DNA from: Tannerellaceae bacterium
GTDB lineage: Bacteria > Bacteroidota > Bacteroidia > Bacteroidales > Tannerellaceae
Reading direction: 5' to 3'
Assembly: GCA_021201295.1 (NCBI GenBank)
Contig: JAJQFE010000021.1
Coordinates: 8,208 to 72,207, forward strand
Length of the DNA stretch: 64,000 nucleotides
Below the pieces are notes generated by a model, which saw nothing but the letters and a program-made list of their open reading frames with translations, searched no databases and was not told where the DNA came from. A program made the translations under genes and the position numbers. Of the stretch, positions 22,578-37,322 are shown piece by piece; the first letter of the stretch is position 1; each line of letters begins with the position of its first letter.

Positions 22578-23906
22578 TTAAAATTGTCTTCCCAGAGTTT
22601 TATCCAGGTCTGCTTTCGCTACCATATAATCATAGATAGCCTGGTTGAAGTTTAATTTAGCCTGCGTCATCGCGAGTTCGGCATCGTTTACTTCCAGCAG
22701 GGTCCCGGCACCGGTATCATATCTTTTCTGAGCGATCAGATAGCCGCGTTCCGATTGATCCACTGCTTTTCTGGCAGCCTCCAACTGTTTGATATTGGTA
22801 GCCATATTATCCCGGTATTGTTTTACAGCCAGTTCCAGGTTCCGTTCCGTATCTTCCCGCTGTAATTTGATTTGATTAATAGTTACACGGGTCTGCCGGA
22901 TGTTATTGTATTTACTGCCTCCGGAAAAAATAGGAACAGCCAAAGTAACACCCACCACCGAGTAAGGATTCCAGACATAATCTTTGAATTTGAAATTATC
23001 ATTCATAGAGGTCCATTGATAATTAGTAGTCAACGAAAGAGTGGGTATATATTCATATTTCTGCATTTTCAGTGTTTCCTGGAGCTGTTCAGTCTGGATA
23101 TCCATCTGAACCAATGAGGAGTTTTCTACCAGATTCGTATCCGAACTGACATAATCCGTATACATATCCGTTTCGTAATCCGTTAACTCTCCCTGACACT
23201 CGATATTCAGGTTCAGGTCTACCGCCATCAATGCTTTGAGCTGCCATTTGGCTAAGGCCAACGCATTTTCAGCCTGAAATACATTTGGCTCTGTATTTTT
23301 AACGGTTACATCTGCCCGGATCAGATCATATTCTGCTATCAGTCCCTGATTATATTTCCGTTCAATATCCAGATAGTTTTCCATCGCATTATGATAGCTT
23401 TCCAGAAATACTTCGTAAGAATCCTTAGCAAGCAGTACAGCAAAAAAACTTTTCTTTACCTGATTTACCATATCAATTTTAGAGGAACGAGCCTGTTCAA
23501 CCGCTAGTTCCACATCTAATGCGGAAATATCCAGACTTTTCCACAATTGAGCGTTAACAAGAGGCATGGCCGCAGAGAATCCCAGACTATAATTATTATC
23601 TGTACCTACAGGGACACTTTGATTGTCAAAATACATCACCTGTTTTTTAATGGTTCTGTCATAAGAAGCACTAAAATCTATTTGCGGGAATAAAGCAGCG
23701 TAGGCGCCTTTTCTGGCATACTCTGTTTTTTCAATCTCCTGTTCCGCTACCTTCACGGTCGGATTTTCACTCAATGCAATCTCCAAAGCCTGTTCCAGGG
23801 TCAGCACGAGAGGTGCCTCTTGCGCCTGTCCCGGAAGAAAGCTCAAGGCCGATAGCAGAGTACCTACTATCAACATCATCTTTTTGCTCATTGATACTCG
23901 TTTCAT
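22578..23906 (-). CDS. TolC-family outer membrane efflux protein
   Basis: 442-aa ORF with a signal peptide and two TolC repeats. Confidence 0.85.
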   Translation of the reverse strand: MKRVSMSKKMMLIVGTLLSALSFLPGQAQEAPLVLTLEQALEIALSENPTVKVAEQEIEKTEYARKGAYAALFPQIDFSASYDRTIKKQVMYFDNQSVPVGTDNNYSLGFSAAMPLVNAQLWKSLDISALDVELAVEQARSSKIDMVNQVKKSFFAVLLAKDSYEVFLESYHNAMENYLDIERKYNQGLIAEYDLIRADVTVKNTEPNVFQAENALALAKWQLKALMAVDLNLNIECQGELTDYETDMYTDYVSSDTNLVENSSLVQMDIQTEQLQETLKMQKYEYIPTLSLTTNYQWTSMNDNFKFKDYVWNPYSVVGVTLAVPIFSGGSKYNNIRQTRVTINQIKLQREDTERNLELAVKQYRDNMATNIKQLEAARKAVDQSERGYLIAQKRYDTGAGTLLEVNDAELAMTQAKLNFNQAIYDYMVAKADLDKTLGRQF

Positions 23907-24119
23907 TTAAAGACTAATTTGAGTTTGTGTTAAAATCTATTATCTATTTTTACTTGCTTCAGTTTTCGTTTTTACTTCTCCGGATTTTTCATTCCTCTCT
24001 TCCTTATCTCTAGTAAGTTGTTGTAAAAATACCCTTCTTTTATAGGGTGTACAATATTTTATAGATAACCAGCATACATTTATTGACGAATGAGGGATAT
24101 TATCCGATAAAAAATCCCG

Positions 24120-24725
24120 CTATTTCAGGTCATACGATAATTTAATCGCATATCTGTTCAAAATCTTACTTCCTTCATCTGCACATACACCCCGCATAAA
24201 TGTAAATAACACGGTGTTGTAGACTTCCGTATTGGAATGATTACAGAAGGATTTGGAAGGATGAAGCATTTTGGCCTGCTCCTTGGCCAGTAAGGCAACA
24301 ATTTCGAAATTTATATCATCCCGAAGCACGCCTTCCTTTACTCCCCGGGCAAATAACCGTTTACATCTGGAGATAAATTTGTTTTTTTCATCCTCTTTTT
24401 GCTGAAGAGCCTTCGGATATTTTTTCAGATCCTCATAAAAACGTGGATGATACCAGCGGGGCCGTTTCATTAATTCCATATAGGCCAGTAATATGATATC
24501 TATCGCTGTAGGAGAGGTTTTCTCCAGTTTGGTTAATAATGCATGTAACCAGTCCTGATTGTATAAAATCCCTTCGATCAGTAATGTCTCTTTATCACTG
24601 AAGAATTCATACAAAGTCCGTTTAGAGATACTCACAGCACGTGCAATGTCATCCATGCTTACGCTCTTGATCCCATGCTGGGAAAACAGATCCATTACTG
24701 TCACTATGATGCGTTCTTTTACCAC
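24120..24725 (-). CDS. TetR/AcrR-family transcriptional regulator
   Basis: 201-aa ORF. N-terminal HTH FSQHGIKSVSMDDIARAVSISKRTLYEFF. Confidence 0.85.
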   Translation of the reverse strand: MVKERIIVTVMDLFSQHGIKSVSMDDIARAVSISKRTLYEFFSDKETLLIEGILYNQDWLHALLTKLEKTSPTAIDIILLAYMELMKRPRWYHPRFYEDLKKYPKALQQKEDEKNKFISRCKRLFARGVKEGVLRDDINFEIVALLAKEQAKMLHPSKSFCNHSNTEVYNTVLFTFMRGVCADEGSKILNRYAIKLSYDLK

Positions 24726-24924
24726 TTATTAAAAAACTCAACTAATACCTGTTAATATATATTTTTGTGCTTATAAAGATCGGTTGTATTTGAAAAACTA
24801 AAAAGGTTTATTCCGTTACATGACTGGCCATAAATGAAAGAATCCTTTCATATTTGTTTGGTTTTAGGGCTGAATGGTATTTGAATTGGTCAAAAATAAA
24901 AATAGAAGGTTTCAAAAATTATAT

Positions 24925-24932
24925 TATCTTTG
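24925..24932 (+). promoter_or_regulatory. -7 promoter box TAtcTTTG upstream of the AraC-family gene
   Basis: tatctttg lies 30 nt upstream of ATG 24962. Confidence 0.5.
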
Positions 24933-24961
24933 CTCGCAAAAATATATAAAATAATTGGAAT

Positions 24962-25873
24962 ATGGATAAGCTGCCTTTTGTAGAAATTAAGGAGTTGAAT
25001 AAAAGTGTCTCCTCATGCGATAGTTATCAGGATATATTCAGCATAGTGGATCTGGATGGAAGTTTGTCTATAGGAGAAAAAAGAGACCTGGAAGAGTATT
25101 CTTTTCCTGTCCGGATAAATGCTTTTTTGGTTGTCCTCATATTGGACGGAAGTGCAGATATAAAAATAGATTATATCACATATAAAATAGAACAAAACTG
25201 TTTTCTTACTATTACACCTACACATATTATTCAGGCTGCCTCTGTTTCTAAGGATTTTAAGGCGAAAATGCTGGTAGTAGACAGAAGTTTTCTGGAAGAG
25301 TGCTATTCGAAATTCAGGAGCCCCTCTATGAATAATTATATGCAGATCTGGAAGAGTCCATATACGGTTTTTGCTCCGAAAGAGACTTTTTATCTGAAAA
25401 TGTGTTTTGAGCAACTCCGGGAAAAGATAAACAATCAGTCCCATTTCTTCTATAAAGAAGTGCTGCAAAACTCATTTATCGTATTTTTATTGGAGATGGC
25501 TAATATCCTGATGGGTAAGAAGGATGGTTTAGTGGCAGTTCCCATCCCATCCCGGAAAGGAGAACTTTTGAATCAGTTCCTCCAACTCTTATTAGTGCAT
25601 TACAAAGAACAGCATGGGGTGACTTTTTATGCAGAGAAAATGTTTATTACTTCGCAATACCTGTCTTTAGTCCTAAAAGAATTGACGGGAAGATCCGCTA
25701 ATAAATGGATTGATGATGCATTGATGGTAAAAGCAAAGATTTTGTTAAAAATGCCTCAGACTACTGTGCAACAGGTAGCCGATGAACTAAATTTTTCCGA
25801 CCAGTCCACTTTCGGAAAGTTTTTTAAGAAACATATGGGTATGTCTCCGATGAAATACCGGAAAAATTCATAA
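24962..25873 (+). CDS. AraC-family transcriptional regulator
   Basis: 303-aa ORF. C-terminal double HTH (...VQQVADELNFSDQSTFGKFFKKHMGMSPMKYR). Confidence 0.85.
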   Translation: MDKLPFVEIKELNKSVSSCDSYQDIFSIVDLDGSLSIGEKRDLEEYSFPVRINAFLVVLILDGSADIKIDYITYKIEQNCFLTITPTHIIQAASVSKDFKAKMLVVDRSFLEECYSKFRSPSMNNYMQIWKSPYTVFAPKETFYLKMCFEQLREKINNQSHFFYKEVLQNSFIVFLLEMANILMGKKDGLVAVPIPSRKGELLNQFLQLLLVHYKEQHGVTFYAEKMFITSQYLSLVLKELTGRSANKWIDDALMVKAKILLKMPQTTVQQVADELNFSDQSTFGKFFKKHMGMSPMKYRKNS

Positions 25874-26392
25874 TTCCTCCGGACTTTCCGGACGGAATTT
25901 ATACCAGTTGACCAGTTCACAAACCCCGTAAAAAAGAATGGCAATACCAAATACCATAAAGGTATGGGTAGCCGTTTCAAACGGATAAGTTAAAATCATA
26001 ATCCCGGTAATGAAGATCAGGACAGGTACAATAAAAAATCCCCAGGGAATCATATGCCATTTACGGGCAAGAATCAGTAAGGCTATTTGTTGAATTCCGG
26101 CTACTAACAGGACAGCCCCTAATAAATACATCAGGATATGGACGAATGAAACAGGGGTACAAACCAGCAGGAGTCCTAACAAAATACTTCCTGCGGCGGC
26201 TAAAGGAAAAGCGGAGGAGATACTCTTATCACGCAAAAAATAACTGATCAGGGAATATAAACCGGGAATAATAAAAAAGATACCAATAAGGATCACCAGA
26301 TAGGTCACAGCCACTTCCGGCCATACAATCAGGACTAATCCCAGAACAATCCCTAAAATACTACGCAAAATAGAATTATTAATCGCTTTCAT
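25868..26392 (-). CDS. HdeD/DUF308-family membrane protein
   Basis: ORF track 25868..26422. The likely start is MKAINNSILRSILGIVLGLVLIVWP at 26392. Six TM helices. Confidence 0.6.
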   Translation of the reverse strand: MKAINNSILRSILGIVLGLVLIVWPEVAVTYLVILIGIFFIIPGLYSLISYFLRDKSISSAFPLAAAGSILLGLLLVCTPVSFVHILMYLLGAVLLVAGIQQIALLILARKWHMIPWGFFIVPVLIFITGIMILTYPFETATHTFMVFGIAILFYGVCELVNWYKFRPESPEEL

Positions 26393-26504
26393 GTCTGTTT
26401 CCGTTTGTATGAAATAAAACACAACGTAAAAGAAAGAAGTTTAACTGGCCAACTACAGAATCTTCCCGGGGCACTAACCCGGGAAGATAGGATTTTCTGT
26501 ATGC

Positions 26505-27461
26505 TTATTTAACAAAAGAGGCTTGAAGCAAATAATCTGCACAGCCTTTTACTCCTTCAAACTGAGTCCGGTTATCCGGCATCTTTTCCAGTTCTACAAA
26601 ATAATCTGAAATGTCATTTGCATATGCCTGTTTAAAGATCTGTTCAAAATTCATCATACCTGACTGCCCCAATATCGCCCTGTCTTTGATGTGTAATACC
26701 CGGATACGTTGCGAGTATTTCTTCATATATTCCACCGGGTCATTCTGTCCCATCACCGTCCAGTAGACATCTAATTCAAAAAATACCAGAGAAGGATCTG
26801 TTTGCCGTACAAATGCATCATAAATTACTTCTGCGTCTTTAGGCATTTCCCGTCCGAATCCATGACGTCCGAAAACAGATGCAGATCCCCCGGGAATCAC
26901 ACGGGCAAATTCCATCTCATGATTATGGTATCCCCAGGAGAGGCCGGCTGCCTGGGTAATCTTTCCTGCTTCATTAAACACTTCACACACATAGGAAACC
27001 TCTTCGGCACTCCGGGTAGAAGGTTGTCCCGGCTGGATCAGGTATTTTACACCTAATTTAGCATGGTCATCAGCCGTCTTTTTCCAGTATTCATTGATCT
27101 GGTTACGGTTATCCGGTGTATATTCCCGTACCGGAGGATTCACATGGGAACTGGTTATTTTCAATCCGGCATCCTCTGCCATTTTTTTAAATTCCATCAT
27201 ATCTATATCACTGATCTTTCCATCCCGGTAACCAGCCAGTTCCAGATTGGTATAACCCATATCTTTCACCCGCTTGAGTCCTGCGGGTACATCCTCATAT
27301 AGTTCCCTAAACAGAGAATAGATCTGTAAACTGATTGTTTTGTTGGCTGTAGGGGTAGGTGCCACATGATTTGCAGCATAAAGCTGACCGGATTTACCAG
27401 CCAGTAAACCTCCTGCTGTCAGCAGGGAAGCACTTTTTAAAAAATCTCTTCTGTTTGCCAT
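26505..27461 (-). CDS. sugar phosphate isomerase/epimerase (xylose-isomerase-like TIM barrel) with a Tat signal
   Basis: 318-aa ORF. Twin-arginine leader MANRRDFLKSASLLTAGGLLAG. Confidence 0.75.
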   Translation of the reverse strand: MANRRDFLKSASLLTAGGLLAGKSGQLYAANHVAPTPTANKTISLQIYSLFRELYEDVPAGLKRVKDMGYTNLELAGYRDGKISDIDMMEFKKMAEDAGLKITSSHVNPPVREYTPDNRNQINEYWKKTADDHAKLGVKYLIQPGQPSTRSAEEVSYVCEVFNEAGKITQAAGLSWGYHNHEMEFARVIPGGSASVFGRHGFGREMPKDAEVIYDAFVRQTDPSLVFFELDVYWTVMGQNDPVEYMKKYSQRIRVLHIKDRAILGQSGMMNFEQIFKQAYANDISDYFVELEKMPDNRTQFEGVKGCADYLLQASFVK

Positions 27462-27712
27462 CGTATTATATTTAAAGTTATAAATAAGGATATAGTTAGC
27501 TTAATTTTTTGTAAGGTAATCCAAACACATCAAACTCTCAAATGATTAATGTTAAATAAAATTAGCAGGAAGTTTTTTATAATTCTGATTCCGGCTTTTA
27601 TTTATCAAAAAAGAGATTCTTTTTTATAATAGTTTTTCATATTTTATTCTTGATCTTTAATCCTCAAACGGTTTTTCTTTTACTCTCTCTTATTATCCTA
27701 CCTGCCGGGAAT

Positions 27713-27748
27713 TACTATACTTATTAAGACTTCCTAATAAGTATAGTA
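27713..27748. repeat. 14-bp perfect inverted repeat in a 540-bp AT-rich intergenic region
   Basis: tactatacttatta (27713..27726) and taataagtatagta (27735..27748), with an 8-nt loop. Confidence 0.6.
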
Positions 27749-28003
27749 TTCTTCCATAATATATTTATTATTAAATAAAAGGTATCCTATTTCGATGTTG
27801 TATAAGAAATTCTCAGCAAGCGATCCGGAATTTTCTTTGGCTACATAGATATTTTTACAAGCATTTAGAAGATTGTCAGACATTTGGTTTAAGTAAAAAA
27901 TATGTAGCAGCATAAGGAAAGGAACTTTTAGGAAGTAAAACCACGGGTTCTTTTCCGGAAATTCTTATTTTTGTTTCCGTATTATTAACTTTAATAAATA
28001 ATA

Positions 28004-30027
28004 ATGAGACAAAGACAATTGTATCAACCGAATGTCTATTGCTTTAAGAGATTTATGCGAAAAGGCTATGGCGCATTTGCCAGTTTGCGCAGGGTGGTAA
28101 ACATTGGAGTGGTTGGAGGCGCTGTGCTAACTTGTATGCCTGTGTCGACTACATCTGCCCAACAGGTTACCGGAAAAGAACAACCAAAAGTAATGGAACA
28201 GGAGCTGGATGAAGTGATGGTGACTGCTTCCCGAATAGAGACTCCTGTGAATCAAACGGCCAGGTTGGTCACGGTGATTACCAAAGAACAGATTGAGCAG
28301 GCGCCCGTCCGGAGTATTCAGGATCTGTTAGTATATGTTGCTAACATAGATGTCATCCAGCGCGGAGGACATGGCGTGCAAGCCGATATTTCGATCCGTG
28401 GAGGATCTTTTGACCAGAACGCAGTACTACTAAACGGAGTTAACCTTTCCAATTCCCACACAGGCCACTACAGTTTTGACATTCCCGTCAATCTTTCCGA
28501 CATTGAACGTATAGAAATTATTCACGGACCTTCCGCATTAATTTACGGAGCCAGTGCATTTTCCGGAGGAATTCATATTATTACTAAAAAAATGTGGATA
28601 ACCGGTTGTATGCAAATATAGAAGCTGGTATGCATAATCTCCGGGGTGTTGAGGTGCGCGGAGCGGCCGGAATAGGTAAAACCACACATACACTTTCTGC
28701 AGGATACAACTCATCGGAAGGTTATATAGCCAACAGTGATTATGATATTTATAACCTGTTCTGGCAAACTCGTTTGCAGCTAAATGAAACTGATAAACTG
28801 GATCTGAACCTGAGGTTTAATGATAAGAACTATGGAGCGAATACCTTTTATTCTGCTATATATCCGGAACAATATGAACAAACCAGCAGCTATGTGGGCA
28901 CTTTGAAAGGAGAGTTCGAAAAGCGGTTTAAAATGATCCCGATCCTCTATTGGAACTGCCATCATGATCAATTTGACCTGGTCCGGGGAACAGATTTCGG
29001 ACGGAACTTTCACCGGAATGATATGTATGGAGCCAATCTGATCTTTACTTATCCGTCTGTTCTGGGTATCACCAGTCTGGGAGGAGAAATCCGCAAAGAA
29101 GATATCATGAGTAGTGTCCTGGGGAAACCCATGGCAGAACCTCACCGGAAATATGTGATGTACGATGACCGGATCAATACCAGTGTAGCTTTGGAGCATA
29201 CGGTTACCTGGAATCGGTGGATCGCTTCTGCCGGTATCCTGATGAATCACAACACCATATTAAAGGGAACCTATAAATTTTATCCCTCTGTTAATCTAAG
29301 CTACCGCCCGGCAGATGAGGTAAAATTCTACACTTCCTGGAGTCGGTCTACTCGTATGCCTACTTTTACAGATCTTTATTATACCACAGAAACACACCAT
29401 GGAAATGACGGATTACGACCGGAAAGGTCTGAGTCCTGGGATGTGGGAGTGAAATATAATTCCCGGTTAGTAACTGCCTACCTGGCCGGATTTCTTTTAT
29501 GGGGAAGGGATATTATTGACTGGGTCAAGGAAACACCGGAGGCTACCAAATGGGCCTCCTGGAATATGACGAAGATCAATACCCGAGGAATAGAAGCCGG
29601 TGTCAAATTCCGCCTTGGGGAGTTGGTTCCCCTGTTAGGAGAGCCTGCCTCCTTGGCGTTGGATTACGCCCGTATGCATCAATCATGTGACACACAGGAT
29701 CTGATCTCTGTATACAGCCTCAATTACCTGCGGGATAAATTCACCATGAAGTTCAATCACCGCATATGGAATGGTTTCTCTGCGGACTGGTATTTCCGCT
29801 TCCAGAAACGGATGGGATCTTATGAAAAATATGAAGCGCTGAAAAAAGTAGGGGATGAACCGTACCCGGCTTTTTCCACGCTGGATCTGAAGTTGAATTA
29901 TCAATACCAGGAGATCACCTTTCATCTGACTTTTAATAACCTGTACAATACTCACTATTTCGACCGGGGGAATATTCCCCAGCCTAGCTTTTGGCTGATA
30001 GGTAGGATTAGCTATGTGATTAAGTGA
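28004..30027 (+). pseudogene. TonB-dependent receptor (plug + barrel) split by a frameshift in an A7 tract
   Basis: ORFs 28004..28621 and 28594..30027. ...GGIHIITKK joins NVDNRLYANIEAG... if run 28586..28592 has 8 A instead of 7. Plug motifs DEVMVTASR, IERIEIIHGPSALIYGA. The true start is possibly MRKGYGAF at 28055. Confidence 0.8.
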
Positions 30028-30081
30028 TACTATAGGATTGATAGTAAATAAAAGCTAAGATATTTATTTTTATTTATGATT

Positions 30082-30124
30082 AAAAAAACACCTTAGACTA
30101 ATCCATTTTAGTCTAAGGTGTTTA
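30082..30124. terminator. bidirectional rho-independent terminator
   Basis: AAAAAAA-acaccttagacta-atccattt-tagtctaaggtgt-TTT, a 13-bp perfect stem. It serves the convergent TonB receptor and precursor-peptide genes. Confidence 0.8.
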
Positions 30125-30163
30125 GAATTAGGGAAAGTAATTGTTTTTCCCCTTTTGGCTCAT

Positions 30164-30319
30164 TTAGAAGGTTCTTCCAATAGTACCTCCTGCCGGATTG
30201 ATTTTAAAAGAGTTATTACCATAAGTATAACCTCCTTTTAATTCACTTTGCTCTTGCTCAGTTAGTGTATCCAGCTCTTTCAGTTTGTCTTGGATACTAA
30301 TTTTCTTAAGCTTTTTCAT
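30164..30319 (-). CDS. 51-aa putative RiPP precursor with a double-glycine (GG) leader
   Basis: Own translation (below the 60-aa ORF-track cut-off): MKKLKKISIQDKLKELDTLTEQEQSELKGGYTYGNNSFKINPAGGTIGRTF*. It is the last gene of the minus-strand operon, 57 nt after the protease gene, and is followed by the strong terminator. Confidence 0.7.
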   Translation of the reverse strand: MKKLKKISIQDKLKELDTLTEQEQSELKGGYTYGNNSFKINPAGGTIGRTF

Positions 30320-30376
30320 GCAAATTAAATTTTAAATTAGTAATTGAAAACCGATCACCCAAAAGAGTGATATTCA

Positions 30377-31741
30377 TTAATTGAATTTTATCCACATATC
30401 ACGAAAATTAAATGTGATTTTATCACTTTTTCTTATAATTATGTCTCCTAACATCCCATCACAATGCTGATTAGCTATTATTATATCGTTCTCTGCATCA
30501 GTGTTAATTATGGACTGCGAAGAAAAGAAATCGAGCTGGTTAAATTCGACATAGATATTTTGTGGTTTAAACACCCAGGATTGTTTAATCCCTTGTAGCA
30601 TTAACATATTAAATTTTTCTTTTTGATTTTCATGAAAAGAAAATTTATCACTTTGTTCATAATACCTGTAATTTATATAGAAGTCCTGATTACTTCCTGT
30701 GTCCAGCCAACCAATGAAGTTCGTACTTTCTAATTTGCATTTTAATAACAATTGGTTATCAGCAATAGTAATTAAATTTATATTCTCAGTTATAGGAGAC
30801 GATTGGGAAGGTATCAATAATTTGTTTTGATTAAAATCGAATTGAAATTCATCAATCATCTTCATGATTGAAATACCTAATATTAATCCCAGGCTATCCA
30901 TAAAGTGAGTTGCATTTTCAAATTTTTCTTTTGAATTTTCATTCAGATCCGGAACATTTAGAAAAGAACAAGAAACTATAGAATCAACAGGTACCCAGAC
31001 AGGTACATTATAAATTGTTATATGACCGATTTTTAAACTATCGATCATTCCTTTTTTTGCTTTTAATTCTTTATTATTCACCATTATAGTGTCATGAGAT
31101 GCATATTTAACCCTTATAGAGCTTGCTAATTGCTGGTTTATAAAACATTCTGTTGCACCTGTATCAAAAATGGCTTTTAACTTTGTTTCATTACTAATTA
31201 CTTCAAAATTTAAACCTTCTGTTTTAGGATCGGCAATCAGGTCTAATAGAATATCCTGTTCCGGGGAAGGATTAGTGAGATAGGTTTTAGGTTGCAAATC
31301 GAAAGTGTTCATTTCATCTTTCAGATATAAAAATACAGCTTTCATTTCATCTCCTAATTCAAATTTGTCAGCCAAATGAAATAATATGTCACATATGTCA
31401 GATGCCTTTTTATAGTTCTGAATCTCAATATAATTATTTAGATTTAATCCATACCATTCAATACAATTAGATCCCATAGATTCACCGAACTCTGTAATTA
31501 TCTGGTTGGTTACATCTATTGCTTTAGCTGGTTGATTTGTATAGGTATATATATACGCTTCAGCAGCTAAATTTTCATAACCTGTAATATTGTTTTTGTT
31601 CTTGTCATAATACTCCCTTAATTCTATCCATCTGCGTTCTGAAATAAATTTTAATACTATTTGTTCTGTGAGGTTACCTTGACAAAGTAAAAAACTGCTG
31701 CAAAAAATGCATAAAGTAAATATAAACTTTTTCATGCTCAT
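30377..31741 (-). CDS. secreted two-lobed retropepsin-like aspartic protease with an N-terminal helical domain
   Basis: 454-aa ORF. Signal peptide MSMKKFIFTLCIFCSSFLLCQG. Two catalytic-type motifs, FDTGATECFIN and WLDTGSNQDFYI, each followed by an ILG/MLG segment. Its start overlaps the rSAM stop (TAATG). Confidence 0.65.
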   Translation of the reverse strand: MSMKKFIFTLCIFCSSFLLCQGNLTEQIVLKFISERRWIELREYYDKNKNNITGYENLAAEAYIYTYTNQPAKAIDVTNQIITEFGESMGSNCIEWYGLNLNNYIEIQNYKKASDICDILFHLADKFELGDEMKAVFLYLKDEMNTFDLQPKTYLTNPSPEQDILLDLIADPKTEGLNFEVISNETKLKAIFDTGATECFINQQLASSIRVKYASHDTIMVNNKELKAKKGMIDSLKIGHITIYNVPVWVPVDSIVSCSFLNVPDLNENSKEKFENATHFMDSLGLILGISIMKMIDEFQFDFNQNKLLIPSQSSPITENINLITIADNQLLLKCKLESTNFIGWLDTGSNQDFYINYRYYEQSDKFSFHENQKEKFNMLMLQGIKQSWVFKPQNIYVEFNQLDFFSSQSIINTDAENDIIIANQHCDGMLGDIIIRKSDKITFNFRDMWIKFN

Positions 31742-33586
31742 TATATTAATATGTTTGTGTTAATTATAGATACAATCTCTGTATAATCTTTATTTATATA
31801 AATAAGTCTTTCTTTTTTCAATTCATTCAATATATCTATTATTTCTTCCTGCGGTTTACCAAAAAGGTTTGTTAGATTTTGTAATGAGACTACTTTATTA
31901 TTTGCTTCATCTAATATCTTCCATTCAATAGAATGAGTTTCAAATTCTAATTCGTTGATCATTCTTTCATTATAATATTCTTTATAACGAACAGACTTAT
32001 TATCTATTAAAATTAACTTGTATTCATATTTACTTTTTAAATAATAAGATTCGATTCGTTGAAATTCATACCACAAAGGATGTTCATAACATTTGAACGC
32101 TTCAAGAATATTGAATTCAGGATCTCCTTTTGGTAGATAAGAATCGGATAAATGACTTTTAAAAGGATGACGTTTACTCCAGAGAATTTCATTTTCTCCT
32201 TTTATAAGTTTATAATATCGGCTGGCTTTGGTGACTCCCAGCTCTGAATAATTATGTTCAAACAACTCTTTATGTAAAAAGAACCTGAGGTTATGTAAGT
32301 TTTCAATACTTTCCAAAATATCAGCCTCTGTTTCTTCCAATAAATTTTTAATGATATTTGCACCTCCTACATATATCTGGAATAGGATAGCATATTTAAT
32401 GAAAAGTAAATTACTTGCAAAGCTATTTTTTTTCTCAATTTTTTTGAGTAATGTATCACTGGCAGACTCATATCCTATTTGTATGTGGACAAAGCCTGCT
32501 AATGACATTTTTTTATGAAGTCAAAAGTTATGTCTTTTGTAATTATTTCTGCTAACATAATTTTGAAATCTGGATATTTCTCTTTTAGTTGGATTAATAA
32601 ATTAAGTAGTTTATCAAATCTTTCCAAATCCTTACCAATTACATCGTTATCCAAAAAATGAAAGTTAGAAATATGATAGGTTTTTATCATATATTCCATC
32701 TCTTCTACAATAATTTCAGGAGGTTTTACTCTAAATCGGTAACCCGTATTCAAATAACAGAAATGGCATTTTTCCCAATGACAGCCTCTTCCTCCTTCTA
32801 TAGGGATACCAATGGTTTGAGGATCTATGTTAATCTGATTAAAATAATCGCTATAATCAGGTCTGATTTTTAAAGAAGACATAGAAATATAATTATTATT
32901 ATGGATACCAGTTGTTATAATAATGTTATTTTTTCGATATGCCATATTGGATATTGTATTATAATCTGATGACTTTTCTATACTTTTTGTGAGTAGAAGT
33001 AATGCATTTTCTCCTTCTCCCCATAATGCTATGTCAAATTGGTCAAAATTAGTGAGATAAGCTTTCGCGGCGTCTTTAGTTCTGATTCCCCCTATAACTA
33101 TTGGAATGCCAGGATTGAGTTCTTTTATTTTTTTAGCAATAATACTGGAAAATACCCATTGATATAAATTCACTGATAAACCTATATACAAAAGATCTTC
33201 ATAATTTATACTCTTGATGGTTTCATCTATGAAATTTTTTGTCTTTATATAGTATTCATTCATATGCTCTTTAAAAAAATCCGGATGCATATTAAGGTAT
33301 TGAGGTTTCAGTGTGATGAGAGAGGCTTTAATATTATTAAAGGCTACTTCATCCTTATCTTCATGTGCCAAATAGTTGAAAAACAGGTTTAGAGCATATC
33401 TATTTTGTCAATATTATTTAGACCCCAAACAAATTTTGATTGTAAATCCGAGAATAGAATATTCCAATAAAGAATATCAACCTGATAACCTTCACTTACC
33501 ATAAATGCTTTTAATACAGACATTGGCGGAGATGGGATTTCTATCATGGAAGGAGGAACCCAATTTAATAATATGCGTGTTTTCAT
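31741..33586 (-). pseudogene. B12-binding-domain (class B) radical SAM enzyme, split in three by two homopolymer frameshifts as assembled
   Basis: ORFs 33389..33586, 32499..33371 and 31741..32508. The N-terminus is B12-domain-like (KTRILLNWVPP..., LYIGLSVNLYQW...IPIVIGGI). The Cys motif is GGRGCHWEKCHFCYLN. The joins are restored by one extra A in the coding-strand A4 (plus-strand T 33403..33406: ...NNIDKNRYALNLFFNYLAHED...) and in the A7 (plus-strand T 32508..32514: ...DFIKKMSLAGFVHIQIGYES...). Confidence 0.7.
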
Positions 33587-34356
33587 AAGCTATTTTTGTG
33601 AGATTGATTTAATTCCATACAAGAACTTTTATAAGTTCTGTTTAATTCGTTTTTGGAAATATATACTTGTAGTTCATTACAATAAGTGCTGTTTTCATTC
33701 CTTGGATGTGAAAGATGATATAGAATATTTTTACTTCTATAAATTATGAATTTACGGTTTCTAAATTGATGAAAACGATTGAAATCTTCATCTCCCCATC
33801 CGTAAAAAAGTTCATTTTCTAATCCTGCTTCAATGTATTTTTCTTTATTCATAATGACTGCTCCTCCTACCAGAGATCTATGATGTAAGATTTCCATTCT
33901 CTCCTTATATTTATATAGAATTTTTATCTTTTTCTTTTTTATAAAAAGTTCTCTTACAGGAATGGATGTATTTAAACATACTCCATTATAAGGTATTCCC
34001 ATATCAGCTTTATTCTCTCGCAGCCGTTTAACACATTCAAGTATATATTTTTTCTCAGCAATAATATCGGCATCCCAAATAGCTATAAATTTAGTATTGA
34101 CTTTATTAGCCATTTGATTATAATATTTTGTTTTATGTAATATATAATCTTCATCTTCTACAAATTGATACCGGATCTTTTTCTTCAGTGTTTTCTGTAG
34201 TATATGATTGCAATATTTGTCTGCTTCATATATGTATATATGAGTATGAAAATTATCCATCAGATAGTTCGTGACTAGCAAAATATTTTCAAGTCTTTCA
34301 ATAGAATCTATTCTTACTAACAGAATGAATGTAACATCTGATAAATCTGTTTTCAT
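33583..34356 (-). CDS. GT-A fold glycosyltransferase (GT2 / Glyco_transf_7C-like)
   Basis: 257-aa ORF. VTFILLVRIDS, WDADI (DxD) and the GWGDEDFN motif, which resembles the galactosyltransferase C-terminal family. ATGA overlaps at both ends. Confidence 0.6.
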   Translation of the reverse strand: MKTDLSDVTFILLVRIDSIERLENILLVTNYLMDNFHTHIYIYEADKYCNHILQKTLKKKIRYQFVEDEDYILHKTKYYNQMANKVNTKFIAIWDADIIAEKKYILECVKRLRENKADMGIPYNGVCLNTSIPVRELFIKKKKIKILYKYKERMEILHHRSLVGGAVIMNKEKYIEAGLENELFYGWGDEDFNRFHQFRNRKFIIYRSKNILYHLSHPRNENSTYCNELQVYISKNELNRTYKSSCMELNQSHKNSL

Positions 34357-35375
34357 AATGTATTTTTATAATAGTTGTAAAACAATACTGATCCCAAACC
34401 TCCTTCCATAAGATCCATAAGTTTACTTGACGGTAAATGGAAAATTAGGTTCTCCAATTCCTCTGAATTTTCAATTCTTCTTAATATGTATTTCTTTACC
34501 TGAGGAATATCCTCAGGAATATGATCTTTTAATCGGGATAATAATAAAAAGATACTGATTAATCCGTCCTTTAAATAAATATCTTTATCTCTTAATTCAT
34601 TGTGTATAAGTGTAGTTAGATTTAACTCCTGTTTTCTTTTATAGAAATACTCTTTCCACTCACAATCCTTAAAAATGTAAGAAATATTTAATATTGCCCA
34701 TAAAAGATATAAAAGGTTTCCTTGATTGACGGGTATATATCTTGTAATAGGTAACTTATATTGATTCAGTATTTTCCCTATTCTTTCTCCGAATTTTTCT
34801 GTATTTCCAAGTTTGCTTAAAATGTATAAAAAGAGAGGGACTATGTAGTCTATAGAATAAATAGGAGGCTCTTTAAAAAAGAGAATATCTATTTTTTTGT
34901 GTAATTGATCAAGTATAAGAGAAATGGTTCGATTAAAAAAATATTTATCATCAGAACCTACAGGCTGTTGTTTAACTCGGATTTCCAGATAAAATAATAT
35001 ATGAATTAATGTCTTTATTGGGATTTTCGACAGACTATCAGAATAAGTTACTTGTTTTAATATAATATCATCCATATCTGATAATATAAGATTCTCGTTT
35101 CCCTTAATGAATTCGGCCTTTAGTAAATAATGGATTCCCAGCCCTATGCCAGTCCAACCTGTTTCCATATCTAAAGATAAAGCGGGAGTCAGTTCAAGTG
35201 TTATTTCTTCAAAAAGAATAGTAGCTTTTCTTCTATATTCTTTATCGTCATTTATTTCTCCCATTAGAAAGAAGTAAATACATACACCCATTTTTCCATG
35301 AAATAATCCCAGAGGTAAATTGTGAGTACTGGTACTAAGTATTTTTTCTTCTAATATTTTCCATCTGTCATTCAT
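34353..35375 (-). CDS. hypothetical alpha-helical repeat protein with weak LanC-like Gly-rich helix-start motifs and no Zn ligands
   Basis: 340-aa ORF. GLFHGKMGVCIYFF, GWTGIGLGIHYLL and GGLGSVLFY motifs. No WCxG/CHG motifs. Paralogous to the 35623..36423 product. Confidence 0.35.
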   Translation of the reverse strand: MNDRWKILEEKILSTSTHNLPLGLFHGKMGVCIYFFLMGEINDDKEYRRKATILFEEITLELTPALSLDMETGWTGIGLGIHYLLKAEFIKGNENLILSDMDDIILKQVTYSDSLSKIPIKTLIHILFYLEIRVKQQPVGSDDKYFFNRTISLILDQLHKKIDILFFKEPPIYSIDYIVPLFLYILSKLGNTEKFGERIGKILNQYKLPITRYIPVNQGNLLYLLWAILNISYIFKDCEWKEYFYKRKQELNLTTLIHNELRDKDIYLKDGLISIFLLLSRLKDHIPEDIPQVKKYILRRIENSEELENLIFHLPSSKLMDLMEGGLGSVLFYNYYKNTL

Positions 35376-35622
35376 AATTTGATTTATTATTACAGAAGTG
35401 GTTTATCATAAATAAAATTGTTTGTAAGTTAATAAATTAAAATCTAATTTGAAGCTTATGTTGTGATAAATTAACTAAATGAGTAAATTAAATGATTTGG
35501 ATAATTATTTTCTAAACTATAATAGTTTATGTATTATAATTAATTAATAAATATTATTTTTTTAATTGATAGAGAGATTTTTATATCTTTAGTAACTTTT
35601 TATTTTAAACCGGAATTGTTTT

Positions 35623-36433: not shown

Positions 36434-37322
36434 ATGCTTATGATACCTGAAATATCTGTTATTATTTCAGTCTATAATGCTGAATCTTATATAGAGGAGT
36501 GTTTAAATTCTGTTATGACTCAAACATTTCGGAATATTGAAGTGGTGCTTATTGATGACGGATCTGAAGATCTTTCAAATGAGATCATGCAGTCTTTTTG
36601 TATAAAAGATAAACGTTTTAAATTATTCAGTCAACCGAATGCCGGAGTATCAGCTGAAAGAAATGAAGGAATAAAAAGATCGACTGGTAGGTATATATTT
36701 TTTCTGGATAGTGATGATACACTTATTTCAACCACATTTGAAGAACTATCTATTCGTACTCATAAAACAGATGCTGATATTATAATGGGAAATATTCTCT
36801 TTTGTACACCGGATGGTAAACAGACAATGCCTTATGAGAGAGAAGAGCCATTTAAGGATGTATTAGAAATTAAGGGAGATATCTGTTATCTGGAACTTAT
36901 GAGAATGAATTCATTTCCTCCTTTAGTTGGTGTATATCTGATTAAAAGATCTTTTCTGTTTAATAATCAATTCTTTTTTTAGGGAGGGAGTAATACATGA
37001 AGATGAGTTATGGTGCATGAACGTTTTGATATTAGCTGATAAAGTTTCTCTTTTGGATTTAATCTATTATTTATACAAACAGAATAGAGAGGAATCTTTG
37101 ATGAATACCAATAATAAAGAATTTCGTATCCATTCACTGGTAGAAATTTCGCAAGAGATTTATTCTTTGGCAAATTCTTTATATAAGCAGAACGTAATTA
37201 ATAAGAATGCAGTAGGTTATGTTTATGCCAGAATATTTCTTCTGTATCATGAAATAGCCAGATTAATAATTGATTTGCCGGGAAAAAAATGTTTAATCTA
37301 TCCATTTTTGACCATATACTAA
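36434..37322 (+). pseudogene. family-2 glycosyltransferase, frameshifted in a T7 tract as assembled
   Basis: ORFs 36434..36982 and 37017..37322. ISVIISVYNAESYIEECLNSV, VLIDDGSED, GVSAERNEGI and FLDSDD motifs. ...NNQFFF joins REGVIHEDELWCMNVLI... if run 36974..36980 has 6 T instead of 7. Confidence 0.75.

Follow-up and report, generated by a model that had tools for sequence, protein, structure and literature searches.

The 64,000-nucleotide stretch analysed here (the window; Tannerellaceae bacterium, assembly GCA_021201295.1, contig JAJQFE010000021.1, positions 8,208 to 72,207) carries on its minus strand, at 31741..33586, what is probably a recently inactivated gene of a cobalamin-dependent radical S-adenosylmethionine (SAM) peptide maturase, belonging to an uncharacterised Bacteroidales family. 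The gene comprises 615 codons when read through two breaks. As assembled, it appears as three collinear minus-strand open reading frames (ORFs) in three different frames: 33586..33389 (65 aa), 33371..32499 (290 aa), and 32508..31741 (255 aa), which annotation pipelines would report as three unrelated small proteins. Break 1 is confined to 18 nt between a TGA at 33410..33408 and a TAA at 33391..33389, and the sole homopolymer inside this interval is a run of four A (A4) at 33403..33406. Break 2 is a run of seven A (A7) on the minus strand at 32508..32514. Both frame changes are −1 shifts, and a stop-free frame of 615 aa results once each run is lengthened by one A. ORFs and frames thus confirm the two cut sites given in a preliminary description of the locus, which had also proposed that one added A per site restores a protein of ~615 aa and that the gene is inactive as assembled. 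Two one-base deletions in poly(A) runs would have divided the gene among three frames, from which no full-length enzyme can form.

Matched to the NCBIfam model TIGR03975, the three pieces follow one another along the profile (positions 1-43, 97-340, and 359-425) and therefore represent one gene rather than three chance ORFs. This model (rSAM_ocin_1, 'RiPP maturation radical SAM C-methyltransferase', where RiPP stands for ribosomally synthesised and post-translationally modified peptide) describes enzymes of the PoyB/PoyC type. According to alignments of 14 and 51 sequences, break 2 interrupts the conserved motif I-K-K-M-(A/S)-L-A-G, and break 1 has conserved blocks on either side. The start of the gene overlaps the stop codon of an upstream glycosyltransferase gene (ATGA), and its own stop overlaps the start of a protease gene (TAATG).

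The gene was aligned from five haplotypes, on contigs from NCBI, JGI, and Logan. The strains are 95-99% identical, and all length differences between them lie in homopolymers, at six sites. At break 1 the in-frame state is A5, found in the read-through strains L024, L025, and L026, and the frameshifted A4 is shared by the window, L014, and L027. At break 2 the in-frame state is A8, which all other strains carry and which encodes the conserved I-K-K-M; A7 is private to the sample of the window. The sister strains thus have exactly the run lengths that the repaired frame requires. As for the remaining sites, the run at 33135 is A7 in frame and A8 in L025 and L026, the run at 32685 is A5 in frame and A4 in L014 and L027, and the run at 32433 is A8 in frame and A7 in L014, L027, L024, L016, and L021. 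The run at 32659 is T6 in frame and T7 in L027, where the insertion offsets the loss at 32685. No intact haplotype was found among the five aligned; L024 is broken at 32433 only, and L025 and L026 at 33135 only.

The Logan assembly of run SRR15221314 (L015) is 100% identical to the window over 9529 bases, both breaks included. The 65-aa product of break 1 is present on at least 14 contigs, and its A4 state is common to L014, L027, and contigs from other runs. Break 1 is therefore replicated across runs, and break 2 only across assemblers. By exact look-up, the 90% clusters of the pieces contain many fragments of differing length from NCBI, JGI, and Logan, and a separate JGI sample has homopolymer frameshifts of its own in the same island of biosynthetic genes. 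The preliminary description had held that confirmed frameshifts would mean a dead gene, and the replication of the lesions in other assemblies points to one.

Similar lesions are found across the genome. After translation of 1.2 Mb of the complete relative G030, 328 orthologous genes of at least 200 aa were compared with the genome of the window (G000), and 58 of them (~18%) have a frameshift or an in-frame stop. Lesion density equals 0.050 per kb in genes with at least 80% identity versus 0.277 per kb in those with 40-50% identity, a 5.5-fold difference. Unlike random consensus error, lesion density thus tracks gene conservation, and most lesions are therefore real mutations filtered by selection. 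Many SusC paralogues throughout the genome are split or contain stops, and the broken conserved genes that were read by eye include no core information-processing gene. An altered genetic code was considered and rejected, since in-frame stops of all three kinds (TAA, TAG, and TGA) are spread over the genome.

The mismatch-repair gene mutS is itself a pseudogene in genome G000 (contig C27:19099-21419, outside the window), having two in-frame stops, a frameshift, and a loss of ~70 profile positions. Of three congeners that have the gene, two likewise carry it in split form and one carries an intact copy; in G000 itself, neither mutL nor ung is broken. Loss of mismatch repair raises the frequency of transitions and one-base homopolymer indels, which is the same spectrum as observed here. 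The two breaks would belong to a burst that affected the whole genome of this lineage with its mutS pseudogene and consisted of homopolymer indels and GC-to-AT changes. The island has a G+C content of 27-30% versus 42% for the genome, and runs of at least 7 bases reach 2.7 per kb in the gene versus 0.57 per kb genome-wide (~5 times more); AT-richness and the high density of long runs therefore make the island an easy target for indels. The window copy shows how fast an AT-rich biosynthetic island falls apart after mismatch-repair loss.

Several cobalamin-biosynthesis genes of the genome are frameshifted as well (cbiG/cobJ-, cobM-, and cbiD/cobK-like, on contig C43 and others; orthologues of G030 r68, r40, and r47). 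The genome is probably dependent on imported cobalamin.

According to substitution rates on the corrected frame, the breaks are recent. Between the clade of the window and that of L025 and L026, dS is 0.16-0.17 and dN is 0.013-0.015, giving a dN/dS of 0.09, and there are no in-frame stops on the corrected frame in any strain. During almost the whole divergence of the clades, strong purifying selection acted on the gene. The window has 8 private substitutions in the gene, all GC-to-AT, of which 5 are nonsynonymous and 3 synonymous. Among them, G169R (33083) places a private R in GGIRTKD instead of the nearly invariant G of the conserved GGIGT, a private E replaces G in the cluster motif, and a private Pro-to-Ser change lies in the conserved IPN. 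Such changes at conserved residues fit drift after inactivation. No same-genus orthologues were found for dating the breaks.

Several observations weigh against the reading of a young pseudogene, and the first group of them concerns the data themselves. The gene could be intact in the cell, with the short A runs being consensus errors in a metagenome-assembled genome. The A7 state at break 2 is known from one sample only and may be such an error. Moreover, 98 private substitutions occur over 12.3 kb (window 23164-35450), 93 of them transitions; once a dense tract at 24.4-25.7 kb is set aside, 26 of the remaining 27 are GC-to-AT (96%), and 17 of their 24 coding changes are nonsynonymous, looking neutral or unselected even in apparently intact genes. 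Such a GC-to-AT excess could stem from damage to the library of this single sample or from real mutagenesis, and both are possible. Nevertheless, two assemblers yield the same sequence, the A4 state recurs in other runs, the separate JGI sample is broken in its own way, lesion density depends on gene conservation, and lesions concentrate in particular genes (mutS, the cobalamin pathway). Break 1 is thus unlikely to be an artefact, break 2 could be one, and as an explanation of the whole locus an artefact is quite improbable.

As for the source of the GC-to-AT excess, loss of uracil glycosylase was rejected, since ung is intact. The signature of a deaminase toxin was also looked for, and apart from a mild CpG excess the changes show no pronounced sequence context.

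The second group of contrary observations concerns the possibility that the gene is still used. With none of five haplotypes intact, a dN/dS of 0.09 is odd for simple decay and leaves room for hypermutable on/off switching of a contingency-like kind. The tract states fit no single tree (by A4 the window falls with L014 and L027, and by A7 at 32433 those two fall with L024), which suggests repeated tract changes, and the two members of the compensating −1/+1 pair in L027 lie 26 nt apart. Partial rescue, either by RNA polymerase slippage or by −1 ribosomal frameshifting, is conceivable at break 2, where the seven A form a perfect A_AAA_AAA slippery heptamer and a strong hairpin follows directly 3' on the minus strand (32440..32507; −22.5 kcal/mol, z = −5.0, with 0 of 200 shuffles as stable), its sequence being identical in all sister strains. 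Transcription insertions are reported to climb exponentially with A/T run length (PMC5574713). However, the same study found no frame restored by transcription error, the A4 break would need bypass too and has no slippery site, and the hairpin was not found in distant homologues. Switching, for its part, is opposed by the lack of any intact haplotype, by the private missense changes at conserved residues, and by the other genes of the island and genome that are broken likewise. Taken together, switching or rescue is improbable.

Frameshifting as a conserved, programmed decoding feature would agree with the −1 direction of both shifts and with the position of the second on a canonical heptamer beside a hairpin. 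In contrast, the in-frame run lengths occur at both sites in sister strains of 95-99% identity, whose breaks lie elsewhere, and distant homologues are all single open frames. Since relatives are in frame at both sites, programmed frameshifting is therefore excluded with high confidence. Viewed on the plus strand, 32440-32507 reads as a hairpin followed by T7 and resembles an antisense terminator inside the gene.

A known parallel to decay of this kind is provided by the poly(A) frameshifts in the AT-rich, repair-poor genomes of Buchnera and Blochmannia (reviewed in PMC5009743, measured in PMC5574713), where one-base indels in A/T runs also inactivate genes, pseudogenes are many, and rescue by slippage is likewise conceivable. 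In contrast to those reduced endosymbionts, the present case involves a 3.7-Mb Bacteroidales genome, one of the two runs is just 4 bases long, and rescue is hypothetical.

The read-through protein has 430 homologues. Of these, 120 were listed, nearly all with lengths of 609-646 aa and one with 565 aa; they show 42-53% identity at 90-100% coverage. Full-length homologues of 610-635 aa align with it at 43-53% identity and 96-100% coverage. Gut Bacteroidales widely carry the family, with members in Bacteroides fragilis, Prevotellaceae, and Mediterranea; it has neither a curated model nor a structure, and NCBI labels its proteins as 'radical SAM protein' only. No paper on the family or on these samples was found in literature searches by accession, family, and motif. 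In an intact enzyme of ~615 aa, a conserved N-terminal domain would be joined to a cobalamin domain of Rossmann type, a radical SAM barrel, and a C-terminal winged-helix domain. A same-family genome (G032:C34:108944-110733) carries three genes of this radical SAM family, of which one is divided into two neighbouring pieces (231 and 431 aa).

The [4Fe-4S] cluster motif, C-H-W-E-K-C-H-F-C (C269-x4-C274-x2-C277; 32757..32783, minus strand), aligns with RGCDYSRCTFC of OxsB, and a motif of this OxsB type would hold the cluster of the barrel. Residues C269, H270, W271, C274, F276, and C277 are invariant in the alignments of 14 and 51 homologues, and the C-x4-C-x2-C spacing is therefore a property of the family rather than a by-product of translation. 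The preliminary description had read this motif, with its leading G, as CX4CX2C, and that reading is borne out; the canonical radical SAM motif is C-x3-C-x2-C, of which this is a variant documented for OxsB. It had also proposed searches with three models on the repaired protein. The radical SAM model PF04055 gives 46.5 bits, above its gathering threshold of 29.5, while the separate pieces stay below it (21.9 and 16.7). The B12-binding model PF02310 gives 26.0 bits, under its cut-off of 32.1, and homologues score 22-29 bits. The predicted cobalamin-binding Rossmann region, with GLSVN, IVIGG, and WGEGE, lies at 33009..33182 (minus strand), includes the private G169R, and is recognised by motif conservation and the fold of a homologue; the G-x-S-x-N, GG, and GE motifs are kept across homologues.

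Among NCBIfam models, TIGR03975 is the third of the proposed searches and the top match with 172.6 bits, followed by BchE (66), ApyD (61), the ladderane lipid enzyme (56), and HpnJ (50). The protein thus does not group with lipid or cofactor methylases, which had been named beforehand as an outcome that would speak against a peptide-modifying enzyme. As for the suggestion that it is of TIGR03975 type, this model is indeed the nearest, and the protein is not a member: the curated cut-off is 281.85 bits, and the profile aligns at positions 1-419 only, of 606. Ten intact homologues tested score 148-192 bits, all below the cut-off. The preliminary description had taken the cysteine motif as looking like a shortened relative of an expanded TIGR03975 motif; members above the cut-off were sought for this comparison, and none was found in 300 Bacteroidota genomes or in control genomes. 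Low scores, partial alignment, and the same behaviour of ten homologues therefore suggest, by profile comparison, that these proteins form a sister family of TIGR03975 for which no dedicated model exists.

In a profile search against the Protein Data Bank (PDB), the best match by sequence is OxsB (E 3.4e-11); a search with the single sequence gave no match, so OxsB was reached by the profile alone. The alignment places C-H-W-x-K-C-H-F-C on C-D-Y-S-R-C-T-F-C and G-M-S-V-N on G-L-S-V-N. OxsB has a C-x4-C-x2-C motif, and its loop residue Asn186 is nearest the cobalt (PMC9204698). For fold comparison an intact homologue was used (P0001, 53% identical) rather than the broken protein of the window. 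Its AlphaFold model, with a predicted local distance difference test (pLDDT) of 91.9 and a predicted template modelling (TM) score, pTM, of 0.90, matches the solved cobalamin-dependent radical SAM enzymes TsrM (E 2.8e-17), OxsB (2e-14), TokK, MgmA, and CysS, with E from 3e-17 to 9e-11 and TM ~0.5. Together with the conserved G-x-S-x-N, GG, and GE motifs, these matches support the earlier assignment to cobalamin-type (class B) radical SAM enzymes, and cobalamin binding is predicted.

The C-terminal domain (113 aa; 31744..32082, minus strand) is modelled by AlphaFold from the protein of the window itself as a helix, a three-stranded sheet, and a winged helix, with a pLDDT of 94.6. It matches generic winged-helix proteins weakly (E 0.04-0.15), and comparison with Pfam matched no family. 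By topology the domain may be a candidate leader-peptide binder. As for a PqqD-like RiPP recognition element (RRE), the topology (three-stranded sheet, three helices, wing) would agree with such an assignment, and the fold and Pfam comparisons lend it no further support.

The gene belongs to a minus-strand operon with overlapping stops and starts, in the order LanC-like protein, glycosyltransferase, radical SAM enzyme, protease, peptide, and terminator-like hairpin. The LanC-like gene lies at 35375..34353, followed by a Glyco_transf_7C-like glycosyltransferase (33583..34356, 257 aa), which is intact here and broken in L014 and L027. Downstream of the radical SAM gene are a retropepsin-like aspartic protease (30377..31741, 454 aa, intact here; PF13650, PF13975) and an intact precursor peptide gene (30164..30319, 51 aa) with a double-glycine leader and a core ending in ..GGTIGRTF. 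The peptide scores 23.6 bits against TIGR04149, whose cut-off is 25. The operon ends in a terminator-like hairpin with a T run (30086..30123). Decay affects the operon as a whole and proceeds independently in each lineage.

The neighbourhood is similar for three intact homologues (L051, L052, and L053), which come from unrelated samples: each has a radical SAM gene, the same retropepsin-like protease, and a peptide of 62-81 aa. In these peptides the leader is of the form MKK..L..GG, the core lacks Cys and is rich in Gly, Ser, and Thr, and the end reads ..G.I..(T/R)F. Their neighbourhoods also hold GT2 or GT7C transferases and, in 2 of the 3, a C39-ABC exporter. The preliminary description had linked the gene to a double-glycine-leader peptide, and the same surroundings of intact homologues agree with this. 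Judged from gene order, the conserved neighbourhood supports a role in peptide maturation, not a specific chemistry.

In the intact system, SAM would be cleaved at the cluster to give a 5'-deoxyadenosyl radical, as in other radical SAM enzymes, and this radical would abstract a hydrogen in the core region of the double-glycine-leader peptide encoded nearby. Glycosylation of the peptide, trimming by the retropepsin-like protease, and export would also take place. As for the reaction itself, the preliminary description had proposed C-methylation or cross-linking. Methylation of an unactivated carbon in the peptide core, with methylcobalamin as the methyl donor, is slightly favoured, and some other radical chemistry is a strong contender that falls a little short of even. 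Against methylation stands the fact that the closest solved enzyme by sequence, OxsB, is not a methylase. A wider alternative takes the intact family to define an undescribed class of glycosylated Bacteroidales peptides. Its enzyme, having the C-x4-C-x2-C cluster loop and a cobalt site faced by Asn in common with the non-methylase OxsB, would perform a radical rearrangement or cross-link instead of methylation, with the A7/A8 runs acting as accidental on/off switches in this repair-deficient lineage; this combination appears unlikely. The family is a reasonable target in the search for a new peptide modification from the gut microbiome, and the dead copy of the window is not the one to study.

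Among known systems, TIGR03975 enzymes share with this family the N-terminal region, the cobalamin domain, and the radical SAM barrel (positions 1-419), as well as an operon with a leader peptide, and TIGR03975 is the best model by more than 100 bits. In contrast, the C-terminal third is unaligned, the Bacteroidales family stays at 148-192 bits versus 281.85, and the partners here are a retropepsin-like protease, glycosyltransferases, and LanC-like proteins. OxsB (PDB 5UL2-5UL4, oxetanocin A biosynthesis) has the same C-x4-C-x2-C and G-x-S-x-N motifs and an extra N-terminal domain. However, its substrate is a nucleotide, its partner in that reaction is the HD-domain protein OxsA, no OxsA-like neighbour is present here, identity is ~14%, and the C-terminal domains differ. 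The GG-Bacteroidales RiPP system (TIGR04149 precursor, TIGR04148 SPASM radical SAM, TIGR04150) is alike in host group and in the MKK..L..GG leader style. Unlike it, the maturase here is of cobalamin rather than SPASM type, the core is Cys-free, and the operon has neither TIGR04148 nor TIGR04150.

Further indels were noted in and around the island. In the sister strains L014, L024, L025, and L027, each with a set of its own, indels in homopolymers or TA repeats affect the protease (31052, 31547), the GT7C-like gene (34249), and LanC-like genes (34892, 34935, 35865). A TonB-dependent receptor gene beside the island (28004-30027) is split at a T/A run in the window and is intact, with 674 aa, in L024. 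The GT2 gene of the island (36434-37322) is broken at T7 (36974..36980), where L025 and L026 have T6 and an intact gene.

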